A stretch of DNA of 64,000 bases, taken from positions 4,921-68,920 of the forward strand of contig JAPLLR010000046.1 of assembly GCA_026387455.1 (NCBI GenBank), written 5' to 3'. Shown here one piece after another: positions 2,894-62,100 of this stretch. Source of the stretch: Candidatus Omnitrophota bacterium. GTDB lineage: Bacteria > Omnitrophota > Gorgyraeia > Gygaellales > Profunditerraquicolaceae. Every line of letters begins with the position of its first letter. The stretch's first letter is position 1. The position numbers were made by a program, and so were the translations under genes. The notes below the pieces were generated by a model. That model saw only the letters and a list, made by a program, of their open reading frames with translations. It was not told where the DNA came from and made no database searches.

Positions 2894-2920
2894 ATGAGCC
2901 TTTAACGGACGCAATATCCG

Positions 2921-2929
2921 TGATATAAT
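2921..2929 (+). promoter_or_regulatory. possible internal extended -10 promoter (TGATATAAT) ahead of the second ATPase gene
   Basis: Perfect TGnTATAAT at 2921-2929 in the 100-nt gap between the two ATPase genes; no good -35. Confidence 0.3.
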
Positions 2930-2993
2930 ATAAACAATGTGTAACGGCAGGCATAAAGCGAATAGAATTTAAGGGAGAAAGACGGCTAAGCTT

Positions 2994-4322: not shown

Positions 4323-4335
4323 GGACACTTCCTAC
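4320..4335. repeat. left terminal inverted repeat of the IS200-like element
   Basis: TAGGGACACTTCCTAC; overlaps the TAG stop (4320-4322) of the upstream ATPase gene. Confidence 0.75.
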
Positions 4336-4440
4336 CTTAGTAACATCATTTATATCAAGCACTTAGGATAATCAGGCTAAAATTCCACAAATTTTTCTGT
4401 TAGATTTTGCCACTTCCTTCGTCTATTATAGTGAGGAGGA

Positions 4441-7886: not shown

Positions 7887-8139
7887 GTAATGAAACGAAA
7901 GGGCAAACCAGGAGTAATCCTGGGGCGCAAAGCCGCGGATCCTAGAAGTTGGATTAAATAATTTTAAGTTTCTAGTTGTTAGGATAGCCGGGCTGCCGAA
8001 TACCGACGAAAAAATCAGTATTTGCCAGTTCGGCTTTTATTTTTAAGTAGTTAATAAGTAGTTTTAAAAATACTTTATAAACGAGAATATGAAAAACAAG
8101 AGGTTTTACCTCATAGTATTTAAATTAAAAGTATAATAA
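7887..8139 (+). promoter_or_regulatory. long structured 5' leader of the giant ORF (candidate regulatory RNA element)
   Basis: Hairpin CCAGGA-GTAA-TCCTGG (7908-7923) with a GNRA tetraloop; further pairing potential at 7936-7956; weak hairpin plus T-run at 7995-8044. No tRNA or known riboswitch signature recognised. Confidence 0.3.
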
Positions 8140-11100
8140 ATGCCTAATCAAAAGCCACGGACAGAAGAAGAGAATTCGCTAGAGCAACCCGAGACCCAGG
8201 TGAAATTTGTTTCCAAGTTCCAGGCCTGGATCCGCGTGGTTGCTTTTATTGTTGTAGCGGTCTTTCTTCCGGAGCAGGTAGCCCAGGCAGCGCAGTATGA
8301 TTGGCGCGTGCTCTGGAACAAGCCCGGCGTGACAACTTTTACCCCCAACTATCTTGCTAATCCTGATTCTCTGCGCAATCTGGATATCCCCCTAACCATA
8401 AAGAAGATCCTCAGTGACATCGCCAATAAGCAAGTCAATGCCATAAAGCTTTCTGACAATCTTACCATTGAGCTGGATAGGCCTCTAGAAATGTCCACTG
8501 TGCGCATTGAAGAGATCTTCAACTGGCTCAAGGGCAGGCCTTGCGGCTCAAAAGCGCTTTATGATTTCTTAAGCTTTAAGGGTATCCAAGCCTCTGAGCA
8601 AGATATCGCAGTAATGGCTTTGACCGTGGATATCTTAAATAACGTGGTTAAGCCTGAAGGAAACCCCGAAATTATTCTCAACTCTCTATATGCTTTGTCT
8701 AAGGCTTCTGAGTTCTTCGGCCTTAAGACTTATCCGGTTAAGCTTGCAATAGGAGAGCCTGTTGCTTCCTTAGCGCCATTCTTGGCCCATGTCAACGGCA
8801 ATCACTATGTCTTAGTTACGCGCATAGCAAATGGCAAAGTATATTTCAGCGATCTGCATAAAGAAGAATTTTTGGCCCTAGATAAATTTGCCGAGAAGTT
8901 TACCGGCAATGCTTTAGTCACTCAGCTGATTGATGGCGTTACTGAGCTTAGCGTTAAAGAAGCGATGCAGGTGATGGGGGCAAATGACGATGATTTTGTT
9001 GGGCCTCCAGCTCCAGCGCCCGCTCCACCTAGCTCAGACTTTGTTGGGCCTCCAGCTCCTGCACCAGCTCCTGCACCTGCATCTGCTCCTGCGGCTCCAA
9101 GCTCGGCTTCGTTAAACTCAGGCTATCAGCCGGGCGGCTATAATGGTAATACTTGGGTTCCTCCTTCTGTTGCTACTGCTGATGGCGGTAGGGTTGCTGT
9201 AGGGCCGGTTAGTTCAGGGATAGCCGAAGCCTATAACGCAGCAAATGCAGCGCCTTCACTATCTGCGCCGGCTCCATATTTAGATCGTTTTCAAAGTTCT
9301 GATCTAGGCACAGCTCCTACACCAAAATATGTGGCTCCTTCAGTATCTGCGCCGGCTCCTGTCGCTCCAGCGGCAATAAAGTCTGCTGATTATGCAAGAC
9401 GGCAACAAGCCGAAAACGCATTTAGCTATAGTCCCGGAGCAGGCACTAGTGATTATTATAAAGTCCCGGTAATAGACCAAGAGACAGGGCAGACCATAAG
9501 AACAGAATTAGTGAACAAGCACATTACAGATAGTGCTGAATCTCGCAGAGTCGCTGAAGGATTATTAAAAGATCAGGGCATACAGGTCCAGGGATCTACC
9601 TTGACAACCCTTAAACCTTTAGAACAGCTTGGCACCGCACCTCTTCTCCCGGATAAAATTTTATTTGCAGGAGATGGTAAAACGCCATTTTTGTCATCAC
9701 TCCCTTCAGCGACTAACGGTATTCCTAATTTGGTGGAGCACCAGATCTTGGTGGTGGCTGAAAAAGGAACTCTTCATTATAATATGTATGTTCCTCAAGC
9801 AAACGCTGATATTGCGCCTATCTATGTAGGAGATCATGCTCAGCTGAAAGGGACTCCAGGTTGTCCGAGTGGAATTTGTATGGATGCTGGCTGGAAAGGT
9901 GATACTGCAGCTCGTAATGATGGTGCAGCTTTTGTAGATATTAAAACATGGACGGGATGGCATACAACTACAGGCGAAGTCGCACCCTATGAGCAATTTA
10001 CTAATGGGGTATTTCATATTGGTAAAACTGCGTCAGAGCCACATTTCTCAGGAAACCCTATTGAGAGAGTAATTTTGCAAGATAACGTTGCAGTAGGCAT
10101 TAGTACGCTAGGCCAAACTTCTGCTTATCAACAGCCGGTTGTACTAACTGATGGTACGAAAGTTTCTGCTGAAGGCTGGAGAAATAATTATACGGTTAAT
10201 GTAGTCAAACCGGTTGTCCAGGTAGGACCGGATTTGAAAAACACAAGATATGATGGTTTCTATGTATCGCATGATCAAGCTGGGAATTCTGTTGGAGTAA
10301 GCCCCCTGATGACTAGAGTGGACATAATGGCAGATGTAAACCAGAGGAAAAGTCAGGGGGAGCTATACACACCAACCATGCCCGGAGATAATGTCATAGT
10401 TTTCGCCGGAGATGTAAATTCTTATATTTCAACCGGGGCTGCGATGACTAAAGTTGAGGCATTTGCAAGAGTTCCTAAGATTACCAATGATTTTTATAAT
10501 TATCAGTGGGGCAATAATTTTTATCAGCCTAAAGAATTAGTTGGTTCAGCAGAAAATTATGCTACCGGGCAGGTAATACCTTTTACTAACCCTCAGGAAT
10601 TTATTGATAATACTCATATTAGAATTGCCGCTCCTTTGCAGGATGGAGTTAGCGCTACCGGAGAAATAACCAGTATGTCCGGCTGGAAACAGGATGGTTT
10701 TATGATCCCGCTTGCTCCTTTTACCTCGGCCGACGGGATGGGTTACACAAAGAACGAGCTCACCGGAAAAGTAAAATCGTTCAAGATAGAGGGGGTTGAT
10801 TTTAAAGTTGATTATGCCGCCAAGCAGCCCGATATATTTAATCAGAAGTTATCGGTATATGGCACCGGAGAAGCATTCGCGGTTTTACCGCCTTATAAAA
10901 CGGCGACTGATGGAGGGGCGAGCATCTATATGACAGGGACTAAGGTTGAATTAGGTGTGGGATATAAGGCGGGAGATTCAATAGCAGTTATTTCAACTCA
11001 AGGTATTCAAGGAGGCCGGATAGAATTTCTCGTGCCGAATTTAGATATTAATAAGAATATTCAAGATCAGATAAAAGATGCTACCCAGCCTATGGTTATA

Positions 11101-14100
11101 CAAGATATAAACTTCAACCCCGGATACCAGGCGCAGTTTGCTAGGGATATAAATAAGGATAATACGATCGCGCTTTCCAAGGATGTGTTAGGCGGTAAGG
11201 TTGAGTTCTGGGGCGGGGGAGTAAAGTCATTGTACAGTGGCGAGATAAAGCCTTTAGGCAACAAGGAAGCTTTCTTTAATACTCACGCTGTCGCCGATAG
11301 GAACTTGGGCTTGGAAACAATATACAAGTTTGATAAGCAGGGCCTGACCTACAGCGGGTTACATGCATGGGAGCTGAATAAGTTCATTACCCCTTCAATA
11401 CAAGATCTAACAGGAATTCAGGAAGAGATGAAGAGTACCTTCATCGGAAAAACCCAGAACTATAATGAGGTATTTATTAATAAGGATCAGACGGTTTTCT
11501 ACAAGCCGGAAATATACAATGTTGGCGGCGCAAAAGCAGGACGCATCGAAAAGCTTTCTGTTGAAAAGCTTGCTGATCCTGCGACGTTTAGGACCAGCGA
11601 GGAAAGCAAACATCTTTACAAATCCACCGCGCTTACTCCGGATGCCAAAGTCGCTATTATTCATGCGCAGATCACCGGGCCTGAGCAGCTTAAGACTGAT
11701 GCTGCTACCTTTAGCCCGATGTTTGCGAATGTGCGGCACCAGTTTGAAGGCGGGATAGAAAAGTTTGTTGCAGCCGTGGAGCTTAATGACGCAGGTAAGA
11801 TAAAAGGCGAGGTAATTGCTATCGCTGATGTAAGAGCCTCTGCTGGTCTGCGGGATATCTTTAAAAATAAAGTTGAGATTAAAGGGGATAAGTATGCTTT
11901 AGAAGGGCTTAAAGGGAAGACGTATGAGCTCAATACAGCGGGTTTTGTGCAAGGGCAATTCATCAAAGGCAAGGGTGGCGCGTTATCCGGATGGAATAAT
12001 ATAGATGTGACAACAGATCAATTCCTTGCAATTACCGGAAGACAGGTAGAGAAAACTGATGGGTATCTTAAGGGTGTTGATCTTTGGATTTCGGATGGCG
12101 GCAGCAGAATCCAGGATGTCGGCTATGATAAGGCGAATGCGGGAAGTGGTTTTTATCGTCCGTTAGCTGCGGATAGGGCAGCAGATTTCAACAAGACTAG
12201 AATATGGAAGAACGAATTTGGCAAGGAATATGTAAAAATAGACACCAAATTAGGCGCACTTCCCGGTGATCAGCGCGATACACCCTACCTCATGGTTACC
12301 GATAAAAAAGCGCAGCCGGTCATGGTTGGCATAGGAGAAACTAACACGCAGATGCTGGAGATGTTCGACCAGCTGCACATGGCACGGGCCAACAACGATA
12401 CAGCGCGCATCGCAGAAATAAACAAGAACATAGAAGCAGAAACAACCAGGATAAAGGCGCAGTCCGCAACTTCCGGCAGTGATGGCTGGGATAAGGTATT
12501 TAGCGAAAAAAGGGCTCTGGATTATTCTAAACAAGGTAAATATATCTATGCTGCCGGAAACCAGGTTGCTACTTTTGCTATTAATGAACTTGTCAGCGGC
12601 AATGTGGCCCTATCAGGAGATTTCCGCGGGACCGCTAATACCGGAAGTGTTCTGAATATGAAAGATGAGATCGCAGGGGTCGCCACCACAGTTTTCTTAA
12701 ACAAAAATCAGGAGGCAGCTTTTACAAAAGGTATTTTTAGCGGCGGCAAAGGATTCGCTGATCCAGCCCATGCGGATCTGGGGCAGGTGCTTATAAACAA
12801 TCAAGGCCAGGTTACCAGCGGATATTTCTATGCCGGCACACCTAATCAGCGCGCTACAGAGATCCAAGAGACTATTGTAGAAGTCAAGACAGCAGATGCG
12901 CAAGCTGCAACCGGAAGAATGTTGCTTAAGGATTATTGGTATGAAGCAAAAGGAGCAGCAGATCCTTCCAAAATAGAGCTTCTTGGCGGCACAGTCAGGC
13001 AGGCGCAGGTAGCAGGCTATAATTTGTTGACCAAGGAAACTTCGCTTATAGATTTCTCAAGAAACGGTAATAAGGATAATACTTTTGTGACCAGGGGAGA
13101 TGCTGCTATTCCGTGGCTGGTGCCTGTGGTGGATGGATTTGTGCCGGCAAAAGGCGGGGAAAACAATCCGGATAATCAGGCGCCCTATGCAATGGCGTAT
13201 GAATATAAAAAGGCAGCTCAGACGGATCCGGTGCACACCCTGATCAGCGGGCCGCAGCATCTGGTCTTCAGTCCCACCAATAAGATCACTTCCGAACAGG
13301 GCAGGGTAACCCGCGATATGCTGGACATGAAGAATATTAAGATCGAAGGGGATTCTGCTAGCAAGCCCATTCCTTTGTCAGCGCAGGTGGACAGAGATTT
13401 TAATGTCAAGGCAAGCAAGGGGTTTGAGTTTGTCGGCTCCGGGCAATTGACCACTGATGAGCGCGGCAATATGCAGTTTAATGGCAAGGAAACTAATGTC
13501 AGAGAATATGCCGGCAGCGAAAAAGCCCCTATTGACAGGATGACCCGTCAGGTGTTTGTCGAGGGATTAACGGAACCGATAGAAATGGAATTCCAGAAAG
13601 GCTGGTATAAGACAGATACATTCGGAAATCCTGCAGACGGAGCAGCTGAGGCGGTAGGACTTCAGGGAAAGATGTTTAAGGGCATGAAGCTGGACGGCAT
13701 GGGTCAATTCACATTTGAGGGAAACCATGTAAATTTAGTCCAGGAAATGAGACGTATTGAGGATGTTGAGAAGATAAACCCCCGTGACGCTCAAACTCAG
13801 GCTGCTCTTGAAGCAAAAGTAAATGACATAGTTGCACAAACAAAACCGGAGTTTTCTAAGCCCATCAGCATAGAAGAGGCGGTTAAGCAGATAGCCCAGG
13901 CTTATCTTGATTATAACGCAGAGGGTGCACATTATCATCCTAATGGTGTAGATCCTCGCGGACAGGATAAGAACTGTTTTGGCTTTGCTGTTGATCTTCA
14001 AAACAGGCTTGAACAGATAGGCGTACACAGTACCGTTATACAGGTGGGTGATGGGGATGATCATGCTGCACTTTTGGTAAGAACAGAGGGCGCCAACGGC

Positions 14101-17100: not shown

Positions 17101-20100
17101 GACTTAAGAAAGACCGCCATATCTTTTGATAACCGCATGGTCGGCCAGGGGCTGGCCACCACTTCTGTGATAAAGGATGGTGAAGTTGCTTATGTGAAGG
17201 GTATATATGCGCCATGGAGTATGGGTAAGGTTGATTTCAGGTTAGTAATTGATGACAATGGAAACATGGTTACTAAGGGTGGCGGGGTATTCGCCGGCAC
17301 AGCTGAAAACCCCATAGAATATGCCTATCAGGACGCTTTCCGCGCCAAGGGAGAGAATTTGACTGAAGCCTACCAGCTGCCTGAGCCCATTAAATTAAAT
17401 AATTATTACTATGATGCAATACTCGGCGAGGGCGGTCTAAGTATCCAGAGTGGCAAAGTAGAAAGCATAGAAGTGGCCGGTAAGGAGATAAAGCTTAAAG
17501 GCCATGATCTAGCAAAAGGCATGATTACTGACAGTAGTACTCCTACCTACTTATTCTTGGGCAGGGTTTCCCGCTTTGACAATAAAGGCAGGCCGCAGAA
17601 AGAGGAAAAACAAAGCTCTACCGAAGCATCGCAAACATGGGATTTTTCTGCCGGCAAGGAAGCTCCTGCTTTTGATCTATCCGGATCTTTCGGCGGGACT
17701 TACGGCAACGTACCTTTTATGGACATAGTAAACAAAGGGATTAATGATACCTTAGATAAAGCGGCGCCTCAAGATAGAAAAAAATTCGTAGATGATACGC
17801 TTGCGGCGCAGACTCAGCGCGCAGAGGCAAAGGGAGATGTTCAGGCGATGCTAAAGGCAGAAATGGAAAAGGCAAGCAGAAAAGATAATCTGGGTATTGT
17901 CTTGTCCGGAGATGATTTCAAGGCCAGAGGCTCGCAGAAGCTGGACTTTACACCCACCAGCAACCTCTTTACTGACGGCGGCGGAACGATCTCAAGAGAC
18001 ATTACTTATAACAACTACACCCTGGTTGTAGATAGTAAGCAGCTGGTGCCTATGGTTACTGACGGAAATGACACCAAAGGTATCTTCCAGAATAAGGCAT
18101 CAGGCAGGATTTCTATCGCAGGCGGTAAATTGGGCGGGCAGGTGCTTACTCCTGGCGCAGGCGTATACGCAGGAACTAATGAGCGCAGAATAAATGGCAC
18201 ATACCAGGATGGAATATTAAATTCTATCTATGAAGCCTCTGGCCCGGTTCCAACTCTCTTAAAGAATTATTATTATACAGCAGAGGTCAAGGATAGCGAT
18301 AGTGACGGCATAGGCGATTCCCTGAATCTTTTGGGGGGAAAAGCGCAGAATATAAATTTTGTGGGCAGGGATTTATTGCCTAATGGAGATTATGAGCTCA
18401 ATAAATCCGGGTGGGCTATTTTCGGCGACTCCAAGGGCAAGTTAGCCCGGATCGGCAGTTTTTCACCTTCGCTTACTCTCTTTAGCGAGCGCGGGCAAAT
18501 TAACTTAGATAAAGATACGATTTTAGGTTCTTTATCCAAAGATGACACAACCTTAAAACTCATGACCACTATCGATGTCGCAAAGTATAGGAGCCTGCTT
18601 GCGGCTGAAGGGTACAGAACAGAAATAAAGAGAAATGATCTTTCCGGAATAAATTATATCCTTATTTACGATGAAAAGAATAGGGAGGTTGGCAGCGCAG
18701 CAGTTAGCGATGACGGCCTGAGGGTGAAGGGGGGAGTAATTCCCATCGCCAGAGACACTGAATCAGACACTATTTTCCGCGTGTACATGTATACCGCTGT
18801 TAAAGATGATAAGATTTACTTGAAACATGACGCATGGAATATCGAACAAGGCGTTGATGACGGCAAGACATTCAATCAGCTAGCTCGAGACGATAACGTG
18901 AAATGGGGACACAGGATGTTTTTGAGAAGTGACGAGACTGAGGGCGCGGACATGGCTGTGGCGCGGATGATGTATGCGCATGGTGTTGGTTCAAGGGGCG
19001 TCTGGTTTAATGATTATGATTCAAGGGATAAGCTGCTCAAAAAGTTTGACAGCGGAGAATATAACTGGTTTAAGATGCAGGATAATTTACTTACCCAAGA
19101 AAAATACACAGGTACAGCCGTCAGGAATTTCTACAAGACTTGGGGTTTTGTCCGCAATTTTCTGCCTGCTGCTCCTAGCGTTGAAGCCAGAGCGGACCAG
19201 AGTAATGGCGGGATGGTTTTGGAAGCAGTGGGAGATGCTGCTTTGATTGCCGGGCCGTTACTCAAAGGAATCGGCGTTGGCGCAAAGGGTCTGCAACTTA
19301 TCGGTGGGACAGCAAACGGTTCCTCTAGGGTAATGAGGGTAATCAACGCAGCAGCCAAATTGGAAGGAATGAGCACTCTTACCAAGGGAAGTGTGCAACT
19401 TGCCACCAAAGGATCAGCCAGTTCTTCTAGAATAATAAGCGGCCTAAGCAAGGGACTTCTTTGGGAGGGCAGGATTGGAAAAGCGGCGCAAGTAGCACAA
19501 GGTACCACTCGCGTTGCGAGCGCTGCCCAGAATCTCTCCTGGGGTTCCAGGGCCTTAAGAGGCGGCTGGAATAGCGGAAAATTTCTGGCTGGTCGCGTTG
19601 CGCCGCGCGTCGGCCTTTACGGCACATTAGGCGGTATCAACAGCTACAATTCCATGTCTGCTGAACAGAAGGATTGGTATTCTAGCGGTAGAGCAGCAGA
19701 AGCGTCGAAGGATTCACAGAATCATGCTATTGCTTTAAGGGATACCTTTAGAAGCTGGGCAGCCAACTGGGAAGTGGGGCTGGATGGTGCCATAGGAAAT
19801 AAGGCAGATGCTGATAAGGCAGATAGTGTTTCCAAAGGCCTGCAGCAGAACGCTTCCGTAATAACGCAGAATAATTCCAAAGCGATTAAAGAAGCAGTCC
19901 CGGGCCTAGGGGGAAAAATCCTGGCGATGCCGATGGATGTTGAGCAGACCCTTTTGGGTTTTGCCGGTTTTCCTTCGAATGCCTCCAGGAATATGGGCAA
20001 ATACGGCATAGCACAGGGTTCAGCAATGAGTGGTTGGAGCATGTACAGCTATCTTTCCTCTGTTGCGGAATCAGGAATATATGCATTGACTTCCCTCGAC

Positions 20101-23100: not shown

Positions 23101-26100
23101 GGTAAAGGCACGATCAAGGTAAAGGTAAATAATCCGGAAGCGCTCGCAGGAGACCAGAAGAAATTAGAGAGATTAAATCGCGCTGTCGCTAGGATAGAAA
23201 AACAGAATTCTCAAGCTCAGGATGAAGCGGTACAGGGCCAGATTCAGGAAGCTGGATTCTGGGCGAGATTAATCGGCAGAAAAGGCCGTTCAGCTTTTGA
23301 AGCCAGTCCTTCATCCAACCCTGCCGAAAGCCCCGCATTAAAAGAATTAAAAGCGCAACGCGATGCCTTAGCCGAGAAGATCACTAAGAATATGTCGCCT
23401 GTCCCTGAAGCTGATTTGGCCAGACAACATCTCCAGCAATTAAGGAAAGCCATAAATATTCTTAAGGAGACTACTGACTCTGACCGGGCTATGGATAGAG
23501 TGGTTAAGGAAGTAGTCAGCAAGGATAAAAAGCAAACCAACAAAGAGCGCCAAACAGAGGCGAAAAGGTTTATAGAAGAAGCCAGGCGCTATCTGCCTGA
23601 ATCGCAAGCCCCTAAGCCTGTTATACCAAAAGGTCCATCCGTCGTATATTTTGGCAACGAAAGCGGGCCAGTACAAAAAATCCATCTTAGCCCCAAAGAA
23701 ACAACGCAAGATGCAGCAGCGACAGCAGCGAAGGTTTTCCGCAAGCCTATTGCGCTTCTACCTGCTCATATATCTGCACCCAAGCCATTCTTTAGCAGAG
23801 TGATAGATGCCATAAAATCGAAGTTCTCTAGATCTGCTAAGTCTTCCGAGCCAGAGTTACTGCCTTCAGCTAGTCAGGAAGCAAAAGAGGCGATTAGAAA
23901 AGAAAGAGTAGCACAGAGAGATCAGCTTAAGAAAGTAGCGGCCATAGTAGCCGAAGCCGAGACTCCTGGTCAAGCTAAAGTAAAAGTAGCGCAGATGCTG
24001 CAGAGCGAGCCGGCTAAGAAAGACCTATCCAAAGAAGAGAGAAAGGTAGCTTTAAAGAGAGCAGAAGAGCTTATAGAAGAGGCAAAACCGTATGCACCTG
24101 AAGTCGAGCAAGGAAAAGAGCATGCCAGCAAGATCGAAAAAGTTACCAAGATCCTTCAGCAAACCACTGATTCTGATCAAGCCAGGGCAAAAGTCGTAAA
24201 AGAAGTAGTTTCAGACGGTAGAAAGCAGACTAAGAGAGAAAGAATTGTTGACCAGCGTAAGGCAGACCAGTTGATTGTAGAAGCCAGGCGCCAACTGTCT
24301 AAATCGCAAACTCCTAAGCCTGCTATGCCAAAGAGCCCATCCGTCATAAACTTTGGTAATGAAAGTGGGCCAGTAGTAAGAATCAACCTTGGCCCCGGAG
24401 AAACTGCGCAAGATGCAGCAGCGAAGGCTTTACGCAAACCTATTGCGTTTCTACCCGCACCTAAATCCCAAGCCAACAGGCAAGAAGTTGCTAAGCCTGC
24501 TCCATCCGAAGATGTTCGGCCGATGTCTGATGAAGCCATAGCTAAGAATCGGCTGGACAATAGGCAAAGGATAACTGAATGGAAAAACCTGAAGAGAATA
24601 GGACAGATACTTTTCGAAACAGCAGATATCCAGCAAGCCAAGGCAAGAGTAGCGCAAGAGGTGCTTGGGGTCGGTAAGGAAAGATCCCAGAGAGAGCAAA
24701 AAGCTGCGCTTAGGAAGGCAGAAGGGCTTATAGCAGAGGCAAGGCAACATGTGCCTAGCGCCACCACCACTACTGTTGCTCCCAAGTCCAAAATGACAGA
24801 GGTGGCTAGGATCGTGCGCGGTGAGAATGGCGAGCCTGCATTTGAGGCACATCCGACTATGAGTTCCTCCAGCGCGCAGTTGAAGGAGTATGTAGCTACA
24901 GAAGAAGCAGCCCATCTGACATTAGGTAACAGAGGCACAGCCGCGGAAGAAATCGCTGCTAATGTATTTACCCTTGAACGCTTAGGCATACGCGATGCTG
25001 AGAAAGTTACTGATCCGCATTTAAGAGCTTTAGCAGAGATATCATTGGACCATGGCGTAGAGAGCCCCATAGTAAGGACTGCCCGTTTTTATAGCGAGAT
25101 AGATGCGCAATTAAGAGACCAGCTTGTAGACAGCCATGGTAATTTGCGCCGGGACGTTTTGGATAACGCTACTAGACAGCTTGCGGGCCTTAGGAAAAGA
25201 AGCAGCGATGTAGAGGCTCGCAGAGACCATTTGAAAGATTTATTATCCTGGTCGCGCATAGCCGTCAGTAAGGAAGGCCAGCCTCAAGAAGTTTTGGCGC
25301 GTTCGCCGTTCAGGATGGCAGACGCTGGTAAAGAAAGCGCGCAGAAGACGCTAAGTGAATTAATTAGTCAAAGTAACTCCTTGTCTACAGAAGAGGCAAA
25401 AGCTCTTGGGGTTGCAATAAAGAATGCAATAAAATCAGGAACGCCAATTGATCAAATACAAGATCCTACCATTAGAAAGGCAGCTCAACTTTGGAAAAAA
25501 GCTTTTGAAAGTCCAGAGCTAAGAAAAGTGATGAGCTTAGAACTTAAGGAAGATCAGATAGCCCAGACTATATTAGAGGCTGTATCGAGGCCGATACTAG
25601 GTAGAGATTTGGGTGCTGGAAAGACAGCAGGTGATATCGCAGCCTTTGCAGTTCGTTTCCAGGTAGCTACGCAAGAAGGTAAAGAATTGAATGAAAGTTC
25701 TTGGAAAATAAAAGATTTCTTAATTGAGCAAGCAATTGATGGCTCTGACCCCATAGCAAGATTTTTTATGGAAGAAATCGCTAAATCCGCAAAGATATTG
25801 AGATGGGTTGTCGTGCCAGATGGAAAAGGCGGCACAGAGTTTAAAGAAGTGCCTATTGATGGTTTTGAAACCCCAGCGGACGCAAAGAGTAAATTTATTT
25901 TTGCTGATAGTGAAACTCTACTAGAAGTTTATCTAGGAGCAAAAGAGAAGAATGGCGAGAAAATGCGCGAAGCATTTAGGCAACTTACAGGAGCTAGCGC
26001 AGACGAAACACAGCTTTTCTTTGCCAATGCAACTTTGATTAAAGCAGAAATAGGGAAAATGTTTAGTCAGTTAAGTAGGGGAAATATTAAAAAAGCAGAG

Positions 26101-29100
26101 CTTATAGCTATTTTATATGAAAAATTAATGAAGTTAAAGGAAACCACGCCGGATTTAATAGATGGTCGATTAATCATAAAAGATGGATTAGGTAAGGAAG
26201 TAGAGGTTCATTCCTCAGCTTGTATAAAGGATGAATATCTACCGACGAAGTTACTTGATTTATATAGAAGCATGCGTAAAGCTAAAGAGTTACCCTTTTC
26301 AATGTCTTTCGAAGAATTTAAATCATATGCCCAGCATTGGGCTAGTTCTATGAATCAAAGAATTGACGCAAACGTCTATGTTGAGCTCGACCATTTCGTA
26401 ATGACGCCAGAAGAGAGGATTAAAGCTAACTCTCATCCTTATAGAGTAGCTCAAGAAGATGGGACGGGTCGTCCGAGTACTATTTTAGGAGATCCAATAG
26501 AGGCAGCTTTCTTAGTTGCTAGAATTACTGATGCTAAGCTGAAGTTAGTCTCCGAACCCTCTTTTGATAAGTATACCCAAGAGGAGCGAATAGCAGATAT
26601 AGCGAATGCTCGGCTTCAGGAGTCAAAGAAAAAAGCAGATTTTGCGGAGTTGATTAGCGGGGAATATGGCATAGGAGCAGATAAATTTACTGGCTTTACT
26701 GCAACCCCTGGTAGGGATATGTTACAGTATTATGGAGTAGGGAAGAAGCAACGCGATATACGCTTACTTGATCCGGAGAAATTAATTAAGGAAACGGATC
26801 GAGATTTTAGAGCGACACTTGACAAAGCTATTGAAGGTCAGATAGATACACATATTGGTAATATTAGAGATAATCCGCGCGCTTTACATTTAGGCATTGG
26901 TAGAGATGCAGCTATTGTAAGAAGAGCCTATGAAACAACAAAAAAAGCGGTAGAAGCTGGAGAATTAGTTAGTTCAGATGGTCGTCCTTACGAAGTTAAA
27001 TTTATTGAAGGGTTTGAACCAAAAACACAACAAGCATTGATGAAGGAGTATAGTAAAGGACGCCTTGAAAAACCGATGATTATATATGTTGTCGGTGATC
27101 CTTCAGGAGGTAATATAGCTGCTTTATCAAGAGGTGTAACATCAGCTGCTACACATCAGCTAACCATGGAAGGTATAACTAATATAACTCAGCATCTAGG
27201 TAGGGCAGGAACAGAAGGTAGGGCCGGAGGTTTACATCCAAAGGATCCAGTGAAATTTTTAACACTATCTTTAGAAGATCAGTGGATTACTCCTAAGCAA
27301 AAGAAAGAATTAGCCGGGTTAACTGGTAGAGACTTGACTAAGAAATTAATAGATATTGGGTATAATATTGATACAGTTATTGGAGAACAAGGTTTTCACC
27401 GTACATTAATTACTTCAGTTTCAAATATACAATATACACAAGCAGAGTTAGCTGCTTTAAAGGCAAATTTACAGGCAAGAAGAGATTCTCAGCGGACACA
27501 AAATAGAGATTTAGGCGTATCTTTGAATGGTACCTTAAATAATGTGCCCGAAGGCGCGCGTAAAGTTATAGAAGCAAAGTTTTCTAATGCTCAACGCGGT
27601 TGGACAATTCCCGCAAGCGATTCTAAAACAGCTCCGCTTAATTTAACTACTGCGGGCAGTCTCGTCTGGCAACAAACCCAGTCACTTATGCATGCTGCGC
27701 AAGACGACCGTAAGTCAATAGCTTCTCTTAATCTTGGTTTGTCTTCAACAACCCAGGCAGCGTTACAGGCAAGAGATTTAACCACGCAGGAAGCTTTTAC
27801 TGCTGTAACTGAGATGGTAGATAATGGCGTTCTGAATTTAGCCCATCCTGAAAGAGGAATTACCTCGTTAGCAGCTATCGGTGGAGCGGTGAGGGCGCTA
27901 AACAGCCAGAATTCGACTCAGCCGCTTAATATAGGTAAGGCTGAAATCGATGATATGTATAATCCTGTTTCCCGCGATTATAGCTTACTGCGTAGTGTGA
28001 CTACACAACTGCAGAATACTAATCCGCAATTAGCCAGAGAGCTGCAAAGTGTTTATAGTGGTACTTATACCACTTCGCAAAGACAAGAATCTATCCGCCA
28101 AGCTGAATTAAAACTTGAGGCTAGGCAGATTCGCTTAGTGAATAACCAAGAAGCAGGATGGGAAAAGACAAAGAGAGGAATTGGTTTTGTTGCTGGCGGC
28201 GCGGTGCTTGGTACGGTGGCCGGCGGTGTCTCCTGGTTCCAGAATAAACAGCGCCCGACAAAAGACGAGATGAAGGATATATACAGGAATACTAGTTTTA
28301 TCTTGTCGAACCTTCCTTTAATAATCAGGGCTAAACCCGAAGCAGGGGTTGCGGTGGCGAAATTATCATTCCTGGCACTGGGAATTGTGCTAGCTCTTAA
28401 ATTAGCGCCCCCAGCTATACCTTTATTAGCTAAATTAGCCGCAAGCACCAGCCTGGCTGGCTTTCTAGCTCCGATAGTGACTTCTTCAACAACTAATCTC
28501 GCGATATTAGCAGGGACAAGTGCTGCCATAGGATTGCCGGCAATGAAAGCTGTGGATGTTGCAGCCAGAAGGCAACAGGTCACAGTAGGCAAGATCACTC
28601 CTTTGGCCCAGGAATTAGGCGTATCCGAGGGGCAGTTAGCTCCATTATTCACTCCGCGCATCCAGCCGCGCGCGCCAAGTGAGATGATTGGCCGTACTTC
28701 TTTCCTGCAGCAGGCTAATCCTAGCAAAGCCGCGAAAATGGATGTTAATAAGTTGGTTCCCGGCCTTAATATGGATGAGGTAAAAGGGTTCGTTAGTATC
28801 TTTAACCGTCCATATCGTAATGCCGTAAATGCCACCACAAAGTTAATAGAAGCCAATTCCTATTTCAGCGCGGACAATCTGCAGGCGCAGGCTTTTAGAT
28901 CGATTAATCTTTCGGCCAAAGCCGAAGAGCAGAGCGAGCGGGAAGCAAACGCAAAGAGGCAGGAGCTAAAGGAGGAAGCAAGGAAGCTTAAGATCCTGAC
29001 TCAGGCTTTATTAGCGCTAGCGGGAAATGAAAGCCGGCCTAATTCTGGTAGAGTAAAATTAAGCCGGGTCAAAGAGAAATTAGAGCGCTCCGGAGAGGAT

Positions 29101-38100: not shown

Positions 38101-41100
38101 ATAAATGAGATGGCCAGGCAAGCTAGCCGCGCGCCGAATAATATGTTTAACCGCGCCAATATTGTACGCATATCCGTATTACTTGCCGCAGTTATTCTGT
38201 TAATCTCCGTAGGATTATTCCATTTCGTAATTCTGGCAGCAACCACAGTAGAAGCAGATATCGAAGAAACAAAGTCTAGGATCAAGGCTGAAATATTAAG
38301 GCTTAGCGGTTCTGTATATGACAATGAGAGGTCTAAAGTAATAGCCGAATTCTTTAAAGGTTTGCCGGAGCAAGACCTTGCTCTGGCAGTGGATGTACTT
38401 TTGGAATTATCCGATGATCCTAGTATTGGACAATGCTGCATAAATCACTCTATGACCCTTTCTCTTGCAGAGAGCTGCCGCGTCAGGCCGGAGCTTATGG
38501 AGATAGTGGCTTCGAGAATTGCGAATTTAATAAGTCAGGGCATAGGCAGGAAGGCTATGCTGGTAGAGATCATCAATTTATTTAGTCTGGTATCTTATGA
38601 GAACCGCGTCTTAGGAAAATCAGATTTCTCAGCGATGCTCTTGTGGAAGATGCAGGAATTAGGCATACCTATGCCGAGAATTATGGAATTGTTGGGTGGG
38701 TGTTTCAAGACCTGGCGTGAAGATTTGGAATATGATTATACATGGCCTGAACAATCTCTCGGAGAGAGCATTGGTTTAAATTGCAATGGCGGAGCGGTAA
38801 TATTGAAGTCCATTGATAAGAGCTGGTATTATATTTTTAACACAGACAATGTTTGTATAGGCAGCGCGCTGATTAGCTGCGCTATGCAAAGGAATGCAGC
38901 TTACCTTTATATTAATATATGGACTGGAGCAGGCAAGGGCATAGGGACTGAGATTATGCGCTTTGTCGCCGAAAAGATAAGCAGAGTTGATGGGCCCAGC
39001 GTTATAGGGGTATTTGTCCCGGCGGACAAGGATTATGTAAGATTCTTGCTGCGCTGCGCAAAGCTGGGAGTTATCAATAGAGTTGAGCTTAAAGTCGAAG
39101 ATAGCGCTAAGTATATCAATAGCGTAGGCATGGGCAATTGGAATATGCCGGAACAGTCTTCGGGTTGGCAGGTAATTACGAATGAAGCAGAGATGGATAA
39201 TTTTGGCAAAGGCAGAATATTTGCCAGATGCATTGTAGATGCAAACCAGCCGCAGACTCCTTCCGTGGCAGGAAAGAATGCGGCTACTGACAATAAGGGC
39301 ACGGAGGAACAGAGAAAGGTAAGCTCTTCCGTAGCCCTTGTTACAGACAAGCTTGGGGTGCTGGTAGCGATAGTTGGAGCATCAATTCTATTAGCGTTGT
39401 CAGCGAAATTCTTAGGGCTGGCTTTATTAATCGGCGTTGCAGCGGTAAACAATGATGATGCGAAATACGTGTTGAATATCGAACTCCTCAAGGCAGAGCT
39501 TGTCAATAAGGGGATTCTTCGCGATAAAGATCAACCGCTTAATATTAATCCTGCAGTATTAATTGCTGTTAGCGATTTCTGCTATACCGATGGAGAGTAT
39601 TTGGTAGGAAGAGAATTCCGTAGGCTTGCCAAGGCATTAGGGCTTGTGATGAGGGAGCTGGAGAGAAGAACCGGTAAACCGGCTGCAGAGATCAGTCTTA
39701 GCCAGAGCAGCCTTACCAAAGAAGAAATCGCAAACATCTTAAATGCGGCTAAGGAAGAAGATTATGCGCAAAGAGAGGTAAGCGCGTTCTCCAGAAAGAT
39801 AGAGCTTGGCCAGAGGTTGCTTAAGGGCGGCACTTCTGCCGAGACCATCCTGCAATTCTTAACTGGTAGATTCTTTGGGGCAACCTCAGGGTCCACTAGG
39901 TCTATCAGCGCTACTGAACATAAAGTGAAAGATTTACTCTTTGATATAGATCATACCCAGGAAGGCAAGTCTTTGCGTAAGAAAGAAGAGACAGCCAGAT
40001 TACTGAAAGAGCTTCTCGGCCAGGTGGTGATCGACAATGTCAATATTCCCAAGTTTTTCGCCTTTGATATCGATGACACCTTAACCAAAGCAGACATTAA
40101 ATCCTTTAACGCTATGGTTGAAGTCTTAAAAGAAGACCCATCTGCATTTGTAGGAATAATTACCGGAACAGGCGCTTTTGACCTGAATTATGATTCAGAA
40201 GAAGAGCGCATTGCTGAGAAAGACGCAATATATGACACCAAGATTAAGCCGGCTCTGGTTAAACTTGGCCTGAACCCGGATCGCCTAGATTTTGTTATCT
40301 CTGTTGTTTCTACTCCAAAGCCGAGAAAGCAATGGACTGAGTCGCCTATGGTTAATCCTTGGGTTAGCATTAATGCATACTGGTGTGTAAAGATTAATGA
40401 CGGAAACGGTGGTTTTATCAAACAGTATCCGACAGAAAGCAACTTTAGAGGTATAAATAAGCTCACCGGAGCCAGCAAATTATTCGAATATTTTGCCCAT
40501 AAATTCTCTAACAACGCAACAGTTTCTTGGGAAAGGGCAGCTCAGTTGGCTACTCAGTTCCTGCATAGGTCAGTATTGGTTATGGCGGATGATGATCTTG
40601 AGCATGCGCGTATTCCTGTGATTTGCAAGCCTACCAATAGCAAGGAAAAAGGTATGTTGCAGCAGCTTGGCGCTCATTCGCGCGAAAACGAGATACAGGA
40701 GCCTTTCGGAGTAGGCAGGATTTATATTAATACTAACGTTATCAAGTGCCCCTGGTTAACCATCGAAAAAGCTCCTGAAGAGTTTGTTTTTGATTTTGAA
40801 ATTGATGTCATCCTGGGTCTGACTACATTGCTTGAGCATATGAATGACCCTAAGCGTAACGCGCGTATCTTTAACGTGGAAATCGAAGCCCATCGCGTTA
40901 AACCGGTTAACGGTACTGCTAACGGTAATTCCACAGATCCTCAGGTCGCGACTTACCGCGCTCCCGGCTCAAGGGATAGGGGCGCGCGCAAGGGCTTGCC
41001 CAAGGAGATCAGAAACGCCGAAGAAAAAGATTCCGCGAACATCAGGCAATACTTGCTTGACGATGACGGCGAGGTAGCTAAGCTCATCGCAGGGCGCAAT

Positions 41101-44100
41101 AGCAGCGAATTAACATATTACGGATTCTATAAGAAGCTGGCAGAAGAGATCCTGCCTCAGGGCAAGGTTATCTTTAAGGTTATACCTTCCCAGAATATGG
41201 GCTTCAGGAGAGACGACGGCGATAAGACCTATATCTATGCCGTCGGCACAAAAGGCGATATTACCTATATCTATGTCACTTCTGCTTTATATGAAAAGAT
41301 CAGGGCAAGCACATATTTCAAAGCTGCCCTTTGCGTCCATGAGGTAGGCGAGACTAGAGACGTGTTCAATCACCTGACTGCCATGAAAGAAGAGATCCGC
41401 TTTTCCAGCGATCCGAAAAGCAACTTAAGCGACATGCAGCGTCTTGTATTTGATTCCGAGAATGATAAAGGAAACATGGCTTACCTATTAAGCATTATCC
41501 CGGATCGCCTTGTCCAGAAGGCATATTCTGATATCACCAGCGAGATGATCAGCTATGTAAGCCTGCTTATCGCCAAGCAGGTGCACGAAAGGCCGGTAGA
41601 CGCAGCTGTCATAGAGGAGGATGCTAATATCGCTGATTCTTTGCGTCATAGGCTATTCGATTCCATAAATAAGGCTACCCAGAATATTAGCATCCTTGGG
41701 CAGGGAGGCATATTATCAGAAGAGGTAAGGGGCGCCCTGAAAACTACCGAAGAATCAATCAACATCATTCTTACTTCCATAGAGGATGGAAAATTGAACC
41801 CCATAGCCAAAGACGCAGCGATCAAATTGCTTAAGAAACAGGCCAGGATCCTTAGGGAATTAACAGAAAATATGGCTTATTTGGAAAGATTCGAATCTTT
41901 TAATTCTCTTAAGAAGGATATCGATGAGTTCTACAAGAGGGTAGTTGAGGGGACACCTACGGTGGTAAAGGACCAGGAGCTGATTGACCTGGCTGATTTT
42001 ATGCAAGCCATCCACACTGAGCATTATGGGTATGGCTTTAGGCCGGTTGTTTCTGACCCTGGAATGCCTTTACCTATATTAATTAATGCGCATGACCTGA
42101 TGAGGATCTTTGAAGATCTATTACAGGCAATAGCTAGGAGAGCACATAAATCTAACACGGCAGTAGTATTTGTCACTGAACCCGGATTAATTAAAGTGAT
42201 TTTTAAGAACACCGATGCAGACGTAGTTGCTGTTCAGGCACTGCTGGAGAAGTGGCATGGCAGGGCATATCGTACACAGATAATCGGCACTTTAGGTGAT
42301 ATCGTCTTAGAGTTCCCTAAGGCTTTCAAGCTCTATCAGACTATTTCAAATGAAGTATTGGCTCAACTTGCAAATACAGATTGGGTTGTTTCTGTCTGTC
42401 AGCATAAAGAAAACCATGAGAATTTTATTGTTGATGAAAAGGTAAGTAGGATGACCGTTTACGGCCAGTATCTTTCACATGGCATGTGTCCGCAGTGCGA
42501 AAAGAAGAATCGTCCTGTTGAGTCAGAAGCTCAGGCAGCCGCAGCGAAGGTTCCGTCTGCGCCAACCAAGATCAGAGTTTTGTTTGTGGATGACGAAAAA
42601 GCAATTAGGGATATGATGGCGGGAAGAAATAATATGCCAGGATACCTGGCGATGATAGCTAAAGATAAGACAGTGAATCTTTCTTTTGAAGTGGTGATCG
42701 CGGAAAACGCCCAGAAGGCGCTTAACGCGTTTGTAGATGCCCAAAAGAAAGGACAACCTTTTGACTTAGTGGTCACCGATATGTCCATGCCGAAAAATCC
42801 TGATGAAGAGATCGAAGGCGGACGTGAATTAGCCCAGGCGATTAAGAAGATTGCACCCCAGACTTATATTATTATGGTCAGCGGTCATCACAGCCAGATG
42901 ACAGAGGTGGCCCAAGCTATCAAGGAAAATGTAATCAATAGTTTCTACACCAAGCCATTTATCGGAGAGGCAGTTAAGGAAGCGCTGCTAGGGTTTAAGA
43001 CCGCGCCCAACCTACAGGAAAAAGCACCTGTTAAGCAGGATGTTAGTATACTTGGTTCTGCGGCTGCCAGTGCCACAGCAGCGGCTACAGCAGCGCTGGC
43101 TTTCTACGCAGCAAAGGCAGTGATTATTTCCAGCTTTCATCCTTTCGCCATAGCGTTATTCGGAGTTTTAGCAGCAGTGTGTTTTGTCTCTGCGGCATGG
43201 GCTTATCTTTTTGGTTCGCAGGCTATCAGGCTATGGTTAACCAGGGCCAAGCCTGTACGCGCGCCTCCTGAGGCAAGAGCCAGGTTAGAAGCACAGCTGC
43301 AGGATTTCTTCGGGCCTGATGTCAAGGTGGTTCTGGAATCCGACTGTAAGACTATTGCCTCAAGCGATAAAGATAATAAGACAGTATTTGTTGATATCGA
43401 TTGGCTTTATAGGGTAGCTCCCCGCGCAACTGAACTTACCTCGTTCCAGAAATCTCTCCTCACCCATGAAAAAGCCCACTTAAACGGTGCCACAGAATCA
43501 GAAGCTTATATTGCCCAGGTTCTCGCTTCCCTTGTCCAGGATATTAATAATGCTAAGGGCGTTAAATTATGGGCGCTGTTCCTGGGTGTAGTTACATTAT
43601 GCCTAAGTTATAATAAACTTATTGCCGCATTTCCGATTTTAGCCACAGGCTGGATCGGAGTCCTTCTTATTGGCACAGCACTGGTGTTGTTGGGTGTTAA
43701 CTTTGTGCTTGCAAAATTCACCAAGAGAGGGGCTTCAGCTTTCTTTACCACAGTTGCATTGACTTTCTTCTTTGTCGGTCTTCTATTGGCGGTGGATGTG
43801 TTTAACCCGCTTTACGGAAATATCCTGAAGAGCTGGTTTCCGCAGACATGGTTGGCTTACATTGCTGACATGCGCGGAGCGGCAATAGCGATAGTAGCTT
43901 TTATTTCTCTGATCGTTCTGCCGGCTTTGATCAGGGAATATCAGGATAAGTTGGCCAAAGAGGATATCTATAAATACGATATCAAGGCTTTAAAAGATAA
44001 TCTTCTCAGGTTTATTAACGACGACATCAAGGATGAAAAGGTCAGGCAAAACTATATTGATCAGGTGGAAAGAATTGCTGTAAATAATTCTCGGGCAAAT

Positions 44101-59100: not shown

Positions 59101-62100
59101 GGCCTTGAAAGAGGAAAGATGATCCAGCTCATCCTGGTCCATGAATTAGGCGCGCGTTTCGGATTTGCCCACGAATCCAACATCAGCCTTGAGGAGATCT
59201 ACAAAGGTTATATGGGCTGGGGCTCTGAACAGGCTAAGGCCGGCGAGGAATTGCTGAACAGATTAGACAATTTATTCCAGAAGACCCACACTATCGTAGA
59301 TTACAATTATGACGGTGATGGTACAGACCTTGCAGCCGCTGATGCTGCAGGCGACGCAGAGCCGTTGGCTCTGGATCCGTTTGCTCCCGGGACTACCGAA
59401 TACGAGTTGGTGCACGAGAGCGCGTTCCTGAGTCTTTTTGGCGTGAGCAGCTATGATGACTGGGTTGCATCTTTTGGAGAGGATTCCGCTGCCCTTGACT
59501 GGGTAGGCGGCAGGGCTCAGGAAGTAAGCAGTAATTATGGAGGCAGCGTCAGCGCTTATATTAATGATCTTACGGTCGTGCAGTCGTTATCTACGGCTTT
59601 AGGTAGCGCTTCTATGGGAGCAAAGACGATTTTCGAAGGCGCTTATCAGGTGAGCATTACTCAGCTTACTTGGCATACTACTGCATATATGACCGAATTG
59701 TTTAGTGTTGTGGGCAGTTCTGATTGGGAAGGGGTAACACAGTTCATTGATTTCTTAGAGAAAGTCGCTAACTTTGACGCAGCTCTTAAGTCAAGCTCCT
59801 ATAGCACTCAGATAGATGCCGATATCTTATACAGCGCTTTTGGCGTGCGTTTCTTAGATGGCATCAGTAAGGCAGAGCTTGGCATAATCGGAGACGAACA
59901 GTACGGTATACTTTATGACGAGCAGGGTAATGTCAGGGATGCCAGCGACGCTATTAGTTTCTATGAGTCGGTGTATCTGTTCTACGCCGCTTGGCAGTCC
60001 AGTTCTGTCTCAAGCCAGCTTAACTCTACCATATTTGTACCTGCTTTCGGTCTGGATATTTCTAACGGCATACAGGCCGCTGACCTGGTCATCTTCGGCA
60101 ACCAACATTACGGGCTGCTTTACGATGAGTCCGGCAACGCTAGAGACGCCAATCAAGCCATAGATTTCTATACCAAGGTATATCAGTTCTACGCCGCCTG
60201 GCAGTCCAGTTCTGTCTCAAGCCAGATTAATTCCACGATTTTTATCTCGGCCTTTGGCCTGGATCTTTCTAACGGCATACAGATAGCGGATTTGTTAGTG
60301 TTCGGTAACCAGCAATACGGATTACTGTATGATGAGTCCAACAACGTTAGAGACGCCAATCAAGCTATAGATTTCTATACCAAGGTGTATCAGTTCTACG
60401 CCGCCTGGCAGTCAAGCTCTGTCTCAAGCCAGATTAATTCCACGATCTTTATCCCAGCTTTCAGCCTGGATCTTTCCAATGGTATACAGATAGCGGACCT
60501 GCTGGCATTCGGTAATCAGCAGCAGGGTTTACTCTATGACGAGCAAGGTAATTCTAGAAGCGCTAGTTCCGCTATTGAATTCTATGGGGCAGTATATCAG
60601 TTCTACGCCGCCTGGCAGTCCAGCTCTATGGCTAGTCAGGTCAACGCTACTTTATTCATTCCTGCTTTCGGTCTGGATCTTTCTAACGGAATCCAGGTTT
60701 CAGATTTGCTCGCGTTCGGCAACACGCAGTATGGCTTGCTTTATGATGAACAGGGCCACGTCAGAAGCGCAGATGCGGCTTTAGATTTCTATATTTCCGT
60801 TTATCAGTTCTACGCCGCATGGCAGTCTAACTCCTTTGCCAGCCAGATAAACTCCAGCATATTCATCTCTGTCTTCGGCCTGGATCTTTCTAACGGTATC
60901 CAGGAAGCTGATTTAATCATATTCGGCAACACGAATTATGGATTGCTCTTTGATGAGCAGGGCAATTCCAGGAATCCCAACGACGCCATAGATTTCTATG
61001 AGGCGGTGTATCAGTTCTACGTCGCTTGGCAGTCTAGCACTTACGCCGTAGCCATCAATACCCTGATCTTTAACTCCGCTTTTGCTGGGCTGGATCTCTC
61101 AGATGGTATTCAGATGGCGGACCTTTCGGCATTTGGTAACAGGAATTACGGCATACTGTATGATCAGGCAGGAAATTTAAAAGACCCTAATGCCGCGATC
61201 GATTTCTACGAGGCAGTAGTAGAGTTCTACAACGCCTGGAATGCCTCTAGCCTGAAGAATGACATCAACAGCATCATCCTCGGCCCTGTCTACGGCATCA
61301 ACTTAAGCGACGGTATCAGCGAGGCAGAGCTTGCCGCCTTCGGACGCAACGACCAGACGACCGGACATTACAATCCGCTTTATGACGATCAGGGCAATCT
61401 CAGGGATCCGCAGGACACCCTGGACTTCTTCGCGGCAGTGGTCAGCTTCTACAACGCCTGGAACGCCTCTAGCCTGAAGAACGACATCAACAATATTATT
61501 TTTATTCCTGCATACGGTTTGAATCTGGCAGATGGGTTAAGCGAAAGTGAGCTGAGCATAATGGGCGATGGAACTTTAGGCATACTTTATGAAACCGCCG
61601 ACCACTTAAGGGATGTAGATAGGGCCATGGAGTTCTATGAGGCCATAATCGTCTTCTATCAGGCCTGGAACGCTTCGCCTTTAAGGAATGAGATCAATAC
61701 ATTGATCCTGATCAACGCCTATGGTATCGACTTATCTGACGGCGCTATACAGTTAAGCGAATTGAGGGCTTTGGGTATCTACGAGTCTATTCCCAACGCT
61801 CCGCTTCTATATGACGAGAACGGGCAATTAAGGGACGCCGCTGACACAATGGATTTCTTTGAGGCGGTCGTGGGCTTCTATCAGGCTTGGAATACTTCGT
61901 CTTTAAGGAATGAGATAAATTCCCTCATCTTAATATCCGTCTACGGCATAGACTTATCCGACGGCATTAATATTTCCGATATAAACGCCTTCGGCAATAA
62001 AGACCCGAATAAGCCGTATATGTTATATGACCAGGACGGCAACCTGAATAACGCATCTGACATCATCGATTTCTTTGAACTGGTGGTTGAGTTCTATCAG

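Follow-up and report, generated by a model that had tools for sequence, protein, structure and literature searches.

The 64,000-nucleotide stretch of DNA analysed here, hereafter referred to as the window, comes from a Candidatus Omnitrophota bacterium (contig JAPLLR010000046.1, positions 4,921 to 68,920) and is occupied for the most part by a single giant open reading frame (ORF). The giant proteins of the Omnitrophota, with their dozens of modules, count among the largest polypeptides that have been predicted. The window contains a stop-free frame of 55,864 nucleotides. From its ATG at nucleotide 8140 to the end of the window, it comprises 18,620 codons, which were translated without stops; residue n of the product begins at nucleotide 8140+3(n-1). 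An initial annotation of this DNA had placed the features discussed below inside a giant membrane protein. This description holds, given the length of the frame and the 41 hydrophobic segments found with a crude Kyte-Doolittle scan, of which one is the N-terminal helix and the other 40 lie at residues 6735-12400. One loop of this protein, about 1,200 residues long, carries a domain that is almost certainly a CheY-like receiver (REC). From its N-terminal side, the loop is composed of a domain A with motifs resembling those of HAD phosphatases, a domain B, an orphan stretch, a cluster of Cys and His residues and the REC. It is followed by two hydrophobic segments and a HExxH module. The interval singled out by the initial annotation, 42060-42960 (residues 11307-11607), takes in the second half of an alleged ATPase within the orphan stretch, the Cys/His-rich linker and nearly the whole REC.

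The REC was recognised with the Pfam Response_reg profile (PF00072), which gave 43.1 bits (E 5.2e-11) on an isolated piece of 167 amino acids (nucleotides 42520-43020), 38.0 bits in a 1000-residue tile and 33.4 bits in a 5000-residue chunk. All three scores are above the gathering cut-off of 30.2 bits. At E<=1, a phmmer search of the PDB with the REC listed 30 entries, of which all but a few are receiver domains. In the best three alignments (3kcn, 8pdc and 3jte), D11547, the Asp of the segment LVVTDMSMP, falls on the acceptor Asp, and the segments IIMVSGH and YTKPF fall on the β4 strand with its Thr/Ser and on the β5 Lys-Pro, respectively. The window REC was also aligned using MAFFT with Escherichia coli CheY and with eight database receivers, to all of which it is 25-35% identical. 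The invariant columns of this alignment hold D11484, D11485, D11547, K11605 and P11606 (D13, D14, D76, K134 and P135 in the numbering of the query piece), which correspond to D12, D13, D57, K109 and P110 of CheY. S11581 and F11602 occupy the positions of T87 and Y106, respectively. The initial annotation had called the receiver motifs intact (the Asp pair, the Asp in LVVTDMSMP, the conserved Thr/Ser and the Lys) and had named the Response_reg profile as the means of checking them. Both statements stand: all five residues align with those of CheY, the isolated domain scores 43.1 bits against 30.2, and the acceptor Asp is aligned. Furthermore, an exhaustive HMMER search, in which residues 10441-11640 were compared with 1.84 billion representative proteins, gave 102 matches, 97 of which cover the REC alone, with at most 49% identity over the matched stretches. 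By every sequence criterion the domain is, we are nearly certain, a genuine CheY-like receiver.

Structurally, the window REC can be compared with the CheY-like receivers (PF00072) of hybrid kinases and with stand-alone receivers. It shares with them the D-D-D-S-K quintet, the K-P pair and an aromatic residue at the position of Y106. However, it has an insertion of 14 residues after β1/α1 (MMAGRNNMPGYLAM...), and its β3-α3 loop is longer by 6 residues (KNPDEEIEGG). Its location is also different. Instead of preceding an output domain or following a kinase, it lies about 11,500 residues inside a giant protein, between transmembrane segments. The single-sequence AlphaFold2 model has an alternating pattern of strands and helices over the REC, with a predicted local distance difference test (pLDDT) score of only about 45-58.

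Table 1 Features of the window and of the giant protein, with residue numbers of the giant ORF and nucleotide positions of the window.
Feature	Residues	Nucleotides	Strand	Basis
REC, CheY-like domain	11477-11619	42568..42996	+	Pfam, PDB phmmer, MAFFT, exhaustive HMMER
REC acidic pair	D11484/D11485	42589-42594	+	MAFFT against CheY
REC phospho-acceptor position	D11547	42778-42780	+	PDB phmmer, MAFFT
REC Ser	S11581	42880-42882	+	T87 position in MAFFT
REC Lys (followed by P11606)	K11605	42952-42954 (Lys)	+	MAFFT
Orphan stretch	11140-11419	41557..42396	+	No detectable homology to anything
Cys/His cluster, C11420-x-H11422...S-H11447-G-M-C11450-P-Q-C11453	11420-11453	42397..42498	+	Aligns with SHGLCPEC of P0033
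Hydrophobic segment of 32 residues, opening the REC-bearing loop of ~1,200 amino acids	10405-10436	39352..39447	+	Hydropathy scan, sequence
Domain A, HAD-phosphatase-like motifs	10469-10934	39544..40941	+	Homologues P0001, P0002, P0004, P0005
Domain B	10939-11139	40954..41556	+	One homologue, P0003
Two hydrophobic segments	11641-11663, 11669-11692	43060..43215	+	Sequence, hydropathy scan
HEKAH (HExxH) motif, module flanked by transmembrane helices	11776-11780	43465..43479	+	Regular-expression scan; no Pfam match
Giant ORF	at least 18,620 amino acids	8140..64000	+	Stop-free frame from ATG 8140, open at window end
Peptidase_C39-like domain	182-261	8683..8922	+	PF03412, 30.3-32.6 bits against a cut-off of 22
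Two TadA/VirB11/T2SSE-type secretion ATPase genes		1820-2893, 2994-4322	+	NCBIfam

The best explanation of these features, and one that we consider probable, is that the domain is a canonical orphan REC, located in a cytoplasmic loop of an Omnitrophota giant multi-pass membrane protein and phosphorylated in trans. The placement of the loop comes from the two hydrophobic segments that begin about 20 residues past the REC. They are followed by an Arg/Lys-rich stretch, RLWLTRAKPVRAPPEARAR. If the two segments form a helical hairpin, this stretch would put the REC in the cytoplasm by the positive-inside rule, and the loop of about 1,200 residues is therefore probably cytoplasmic. With slightly less confidence, the REC would also be a working phospho-switch, and it is reasonable to suppose that it could take phosphate from a kinase encoded elsewhere. 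Pfam searches of 1000-residue tiles of all 18,620 residues and of the six upstream genes gave no match to HisKA, HATPase_c or the histidine phosphotransfer (Hpt) domain, and neither an H-box nor a pair of G1 and G2 boxes was seen in the part of the giant protein covered by the window (18,620 residues) or in those six genes. In the proposed mechanism, phosphate would reach D11547 in trans, from a histidine kinase or an Hpt protein whose coding sequence lies elsewhere or in the C-terminal portion of the giant gene beyond the window; alternatively, acetyl phosphate or another small phosphodonor could serve as the donor. Phosphorylation would shift the α4-β5-α5 face, and this could alter the activity or the packing of the modules tethered on either side. 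Upstream, the candidate targets are a putative Cys/His knuckle, an orphan α/β unit and, further off, domain A. Downstream, they are the transmembrane hairpin and the HExxH module, from about 20 residues past the REC. Of these candidates, the nearest would be the HExxH module embedded in the membrane just downstream, together with the knuckle and orphan unit just upstream.

Four points weigh against a canonical REC phosphorylated in trans. First, the Pfam match spans positions 22-109 of the profile only, because of the 14-residue insertion after β1/α1, and the placement of the DD pair, which lies outside this match, comes from MAFFT and not from the HMM. Second, the ORF runs past the window, and a kinase may lie further downstream in the same protein. 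Third, if only one of the two segments after the REC spans the membrane, the REC would be extracytoplasmic and would not be a conventional phospho-switch. Fourth, the region has no orthologue in the collections searched by which to trace the conservation of its catalytic residues over time. Protein-query scans of genome and metagenome contigs found no homologue of the receiver-bearing region, and an exact 35-mer from the window end is absent from the metagenome contigs. A word-indexed homology search gave nothing for residues 11150-11640, for residues 10469-11139 or even for an alignment that included database members, and its negatives say little.

The strongest alternative, which we consider unlikely, concerns the segment upstream. 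The initial annotation had described it as a degenerate kinase-like ATPase lacking the G1 and G2 boxes and had taken it, together with the receiver, for a fossil hybrid histidine kinase that the giant ORF had taken up. On this view, the REC and about 330 preceding residues would be what is left of such a kinase. The orphan stretch can be described as composed of helices at about residues 11150-11265 and a small α/β unit at residues 11280-11396 (nucleotides 41977-42327), which is the alleged ATPase. The unit would be a catalytic and ATP-binding (CA) or HATPase_c domain without the ATP lid and the N, G1 and G2 boxes, and the preceding helices would be a decayed dimerisation and histidine phosphotransfer (DHp) domain. 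Several observations favour such an origin. Among the 97 database receivers most similar to the window REC, 34 directly follow a real HATPase_c domain in hybrid kinases. By eye, the series ELIDLADF...PILINAHDLMRIFEDLLQAIARRA...AVVFVTEPGLIKVIFKN...LEKWHGRAYRTQIIGTLGDIVLEFPKAF fits a CA domain from which the lid has been deleted. The α-α-β-β-α-β-β order in the low-confidence AlphaFold2 model is compatible with this fold, and hhalign gave a co-linear alignment of 226 columns to a DHp+CA profile with P 0.066.

However, every quantitative test of this putative remnant gave a result at the level of chance. In the exhaustive search of 1.84 billion proteins, nothing covers residues ~11180-11455. Pfam at E<=10 on residues 11081-11476 found no HATPase_c or HisKA, only two weak and unrelated matches below the cut-off. 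A phmmer search of all PDB sequences at E<=10 returned no kinase or GHKL protein for the orphan stretch, and an NCBIfam-style search had no match for the alleged kinase-like ATPase. We also used histidine-kinase HMMs built from 29-30 DHp+CA cores of the hybrid kinases that the exhaustive search had recovered; the cores were recognised by their G1 and G2 boxes. With hmmsearch --max on residues 11150-11476, the CA model gave no match and the DHp+CA model gave 0.3 bits. Across 63 overlapping tiles of the giant protein, which served as an internal control, these models scored at most 1.7 bits on any tile, and the tiles of the orphan stretch were outside the ten best listed with either kinase model. 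In hhalign, the stretch aligned to the kinase-core alignments with P 0.066-0.13 and a probability below 1%, and 9-24% of composition-preserving shuffles (120 per setting) equalled or exceeded its score. Moreover, hhalign sites G1 and G2 elsewhere than the initial annotation does, a disagreement that is typical of noise.

The motif searches are equally negative. Residues 11150-11476 hold no N-box Asn, no DxGxG (G1), no GxGxG (G2), no F box and no match to an H-box regular expression. The sole H-box candidate, LRH(11170)RLFDSINK, aligns at -2.7 bits. Thus, the absence of the G1 and G2 boxes reported by the initial annotation was confirmed, whereas the likeness to an ATPase was not, there being no measurable similarity to HATPase_c. 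The alignment to HATPase_c and the upstream DHp helix that it had proposed to look for were both sought, with the Pfam, HMM and motif results given above, and neither was found. Compared with HATPase_c/GHKL domains (PF02518), the stretch is alike only in its length of about 115 amino acids, in the predicted order of its secondary structure and in one non-significant structural match. It has no profile similarity, none of the N, G1, F and G2 boxes and no H-box upstream.

That structural match comes from models of poor quality. No alignment could be made for the structure prediction of the orphan stretch, since the sequence has no homologues, and two runs of single-sequence AlphaFold2 gave a pLDDT of 39 and unusable models. 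With the second of these models, Foldseek returned nothing at E<=1e-3. Among natural proteins, the GHKL N-domain of HSP90 came closest (E 0.14, probability 0.25, TM-score 0.30, root mean square deviation 9 Å). This match is non-significant, and Foldseek warns that matches obtained from such models are meaningless. The match to HSP90 and the order of the modelled secondary structure may keep the idea of a kinase remnant alive as an outside chance, yet they are not evidence for it. It also speaks against such a remnant that, in Omnitrophota giants, co-occurrence analysis assigns PF00072 and PF02518 to separate modules of domains (10.64898/2026.06.07.730766). The idea of a fossil kinase does not survive testing at the level of sequence, and we would call the stretch before the REC a lineage-specific orphan segment rather than a recognisable remnant of a kinase. 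A degenerate second receiver was also considered as the identity of the stretch, prompted by a phmmer alignment to the database protein P0033 that was extended upstream. It was rejected; the posterior support of the extension is very low, and the spacing from β4 to β5 would demand an insertion of about 11 residues.

Somewhat less likely still is that the REC is a phosphorylation-independent structural or interaction module, comparable to pseudo-receivers, which is kept in the scaffold as a folding unit or a dimerisation surface. This would fit with the lack of a partner kinase within 64 kb and with the description of giant proteins as fast-evolving mosaics of domains. The insertions of 14 and 6 amino acids, the latter of which is next to the active site, might also affect the docking of a kinase. 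However, known pseudo-receivers as a rule lack either the acceptor Asp or the acidic pair. The window REC has retained all five catalytic residues, the cis-Pro after the Lys and the aromatic switch residue. These residues were kept while the adjoining sequence diverged beyond recognition, as would be expected of purifying selection on phosphochemistry.

A more far-reaching interpretation includes the Cys/His cluster, which was missed by the initial annotation. The cluster follows the orphan stretch, ahead of the REC, and reads VC-Q-H-K...(24 residues)...S-H-G-M-C-P-Q-C. It may form a small knuckle that binds metal and is attached to the REC. The motif belongs to no Pfam family, and no literature was found for HGxCPxC. 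The only comparable arrangement is in P0033, a protein of 265 amino acids that is labelled 'CheY-like chemotaxis protein' in JGI/IMG. It consists of a REC, a coiled coil, the segment LPICANCKK...SHGLCPEC, a linker and a second REC. The segment SHGLCPEC, the linker and the second receiver of P0033 are confidently aligned with the window by phmmer. In both proteins, SHG-x-CP-x-C is followed about 20 residues on by a receiver with a PFD(L/V)V(V/I)xD acceptor strand. However, the window has C-x-H in place of the first CxxC and no receiver before the motif, and P0033 is a single database example. Cys makes up 57 of the 18,620 residues of the giant protein (0.3%). Four such clusters are found in it and 21% of random placements yield at least one, so that the cluster is only weakly unusual.

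The orphan stretch of about 330 residues, the C-x-H...SHGxCPxC knuckle and the REC could together be an undescribed signalling cassette of Omnitrophota giants, a proposal that we regard as improbable, slightly more so than a pseudo-receiver. One possibility would be a radically reduced, lid-less pseudokinase derived from GHKL that docks onto its own receiver. Another would be a metal- or redox-sensing knuckle that controls the phosphorylation of the REC. Either variant, if true, would link a signal from the cytoplasm to the neighbouring HExxH module in the membrane. Last, that the REC match is a chance or compositional artefact of a very long ORF, as its score in the 5000-residue chunk, just 3 bits over the cut-off, might suggest, can be dismissed for practical purposes in view of the E-value of 5e-11 in isolation, the consistent alignment of all signature residues with CheY and PDB receivers and the 97 independent receiver matches with up to 49% identity.

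An apparently phosphorylation-competent REC between membrane segments would be a concrete handle of about 150 residues that could be expressed and assayed, and it would also help to find the giant protein's partner kinase. Receivers are already catalogued in more than 100 Omnitrophota giants, and the window REC adds an instance to them and not a principle. The sole potentially new element is the fusion of the orphan stretch and the Cys/His knuckle to the REC, which is without comparative support.

The remaining matches of the exhaustive search, those that do not cover the REC alone, cover only the upstream domains A and B of the REC-bearing loop. The homologues of domain A are fragments of giant proteins that are 29-35% identical to it. 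One of them, P0005, is MBF0123037.1 from Ca. Omnitrophota, which has 3,948 amino acids. Domain A has the motifs FFAFDIDDTLT, GIITG, GINK and VMADDD, which are conserved in its four homologues and which were compared with HAD motifs I (hhhhDxDxT), II (T/S), III (K) and IV (DD). Profile searches of domain A against Pfam, NCBIfam and the PDB gave no match, and therefore its assignment as HAD remains at the level of motifs. Three of the four homologues also carry S-adenosylmethionine-dependent methyltransferase domains, one of which is of the CheR type.

Downstream of the REC, the HExxH module is one of several in the protein. HExxH motifs beside transmembrane helices are found in RHEVKHV (nucleotide 36607, residue 9490), in THEKAHL (nucleotide 43465, residue 11776) and in the M50-like LHELGHA (residue 7318). 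A similar arrangement is seen in P0009, a giant-protein fragment of 6,364 amino acids. Its tandem receivers are 37% identical to the window REC and are located next to transmembrane and HExxH (VHEAQHA) modules; P0009 has no canonical pair of G1 and G2 boxes. The occurrence of HExxH and transmembrane modules both in the window and in P0009 suggests recurrent, cryptic modules resembling membrane metalloproteases.

The host protein agrees with the class of giant genes that has been published for the Omnitrophota. Previously, these giants were reported to have a C39 domain near an N-terminal signal peptide, many transmembrane helices, secretion genes upstream and poor annotatability (West-Roberts et al. 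2023, 10.1101/2023.11.21.568195). CheY-like receivers were also reported in giant proteins (10.1101/2023.11.21.568195). For 916 long Omnitrophota proteins, the counts given in a 2026 preprint are 105 for PF00072, 136 for PF02518 and 74 for the HAD family PF13419, and PF00072 and PF02518 belong to different co-occurrence modules (10.64898/2026.06.07.730766). Receivers are thus a recurrent component of this class, as are HAD and methyltransferase domains. The window protein is similar to these giants in exceeding 10,000 amino acids, in having a signal or anchor segment and a C39 domain, in its many transmembrane helices and in being composed mostly of unannotatable sequence. Its N-terminus is Lys-rich, with a hydrophobic signal or anchor helix at about residues 28-45 (the hydropathy peak is near residues 23-41) and an AQA-type motif, and is followed by the C39-like domain. 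T2SS/T4-type ATPase genes lie upstream in both. However, the published secretion locus has more than 10 genes, whereas the window shows two secretion genes. Furthermore, most of the published giants, though not all, have a divergent SecA_DEAD domain; there is no match to SecA_DEAD (PF07517) in the 18,620 in-window residues, and the domain may lie downstream, in the C-terminal part of the ORF outside the window. For the REC-bearing loop of the window, none of the collections searched contained a close relative.

Of the six genes upstream of the giant gene, two encode the ATPases, one a Y1 (REP/IS200-like) transposase and one a TPR protein; the other two are unknowns. The transposase gene follows the ATPase pair, within 1820-5058 of the window on the same (+) strand. 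The first ATPase gene is 81-89% identical to loci in several metagenome-assembled genomes (MAGs) of Candidatus Omnitrophota. A look-up of the ATPase found only a 5-kb Logan contig, from SRR20698647, which carries an identical gene and on which PF00437 was recognised. An exact-protein look-up of the ORF at 6393-7637 gave no match. In the Omnitrophota MAGs, the orthologous ATPase has a different downstream context, an operon that resembles those for pili or secretion, and tblastn found no homologue of the giant gene within 10 kb of these loci. The arrangement of ATPase and giant genes in the window may therefore be rearranged.

The rest of the giant protein is poorly annotated. In-frame Pfam matches are scattered along the ORF, and 1000-residue tiles of all 18,620 residues gave only about five types of family. 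These are C39, an M50-like match below the threshold (residues ~7311-7402), ICMT/PEMT (residues ~8014-8099), the receiver and Glyoxalase. The Glyoxalase matches, near residues 17,400-18,000, are odd and fragmentary, with no single stretch that passes. A repeat of about 69 amino acids, marked by (A/S)D(L/I)(L/N)xFGN, is found at residues 17383, 17452, 17521 and 17946 (window ~60280-62000, + strand). It was not reported by a blastp self-comparison, and it overlaps the fragmentary Glyoxalase scores (residues ~17383-17953). The GC content of the giant ORF falls locally to 0.398 at 26001-28000, against a background of 0.45-0.48, and the GC skew falls at 32-34 kb and at 60-62 kb.

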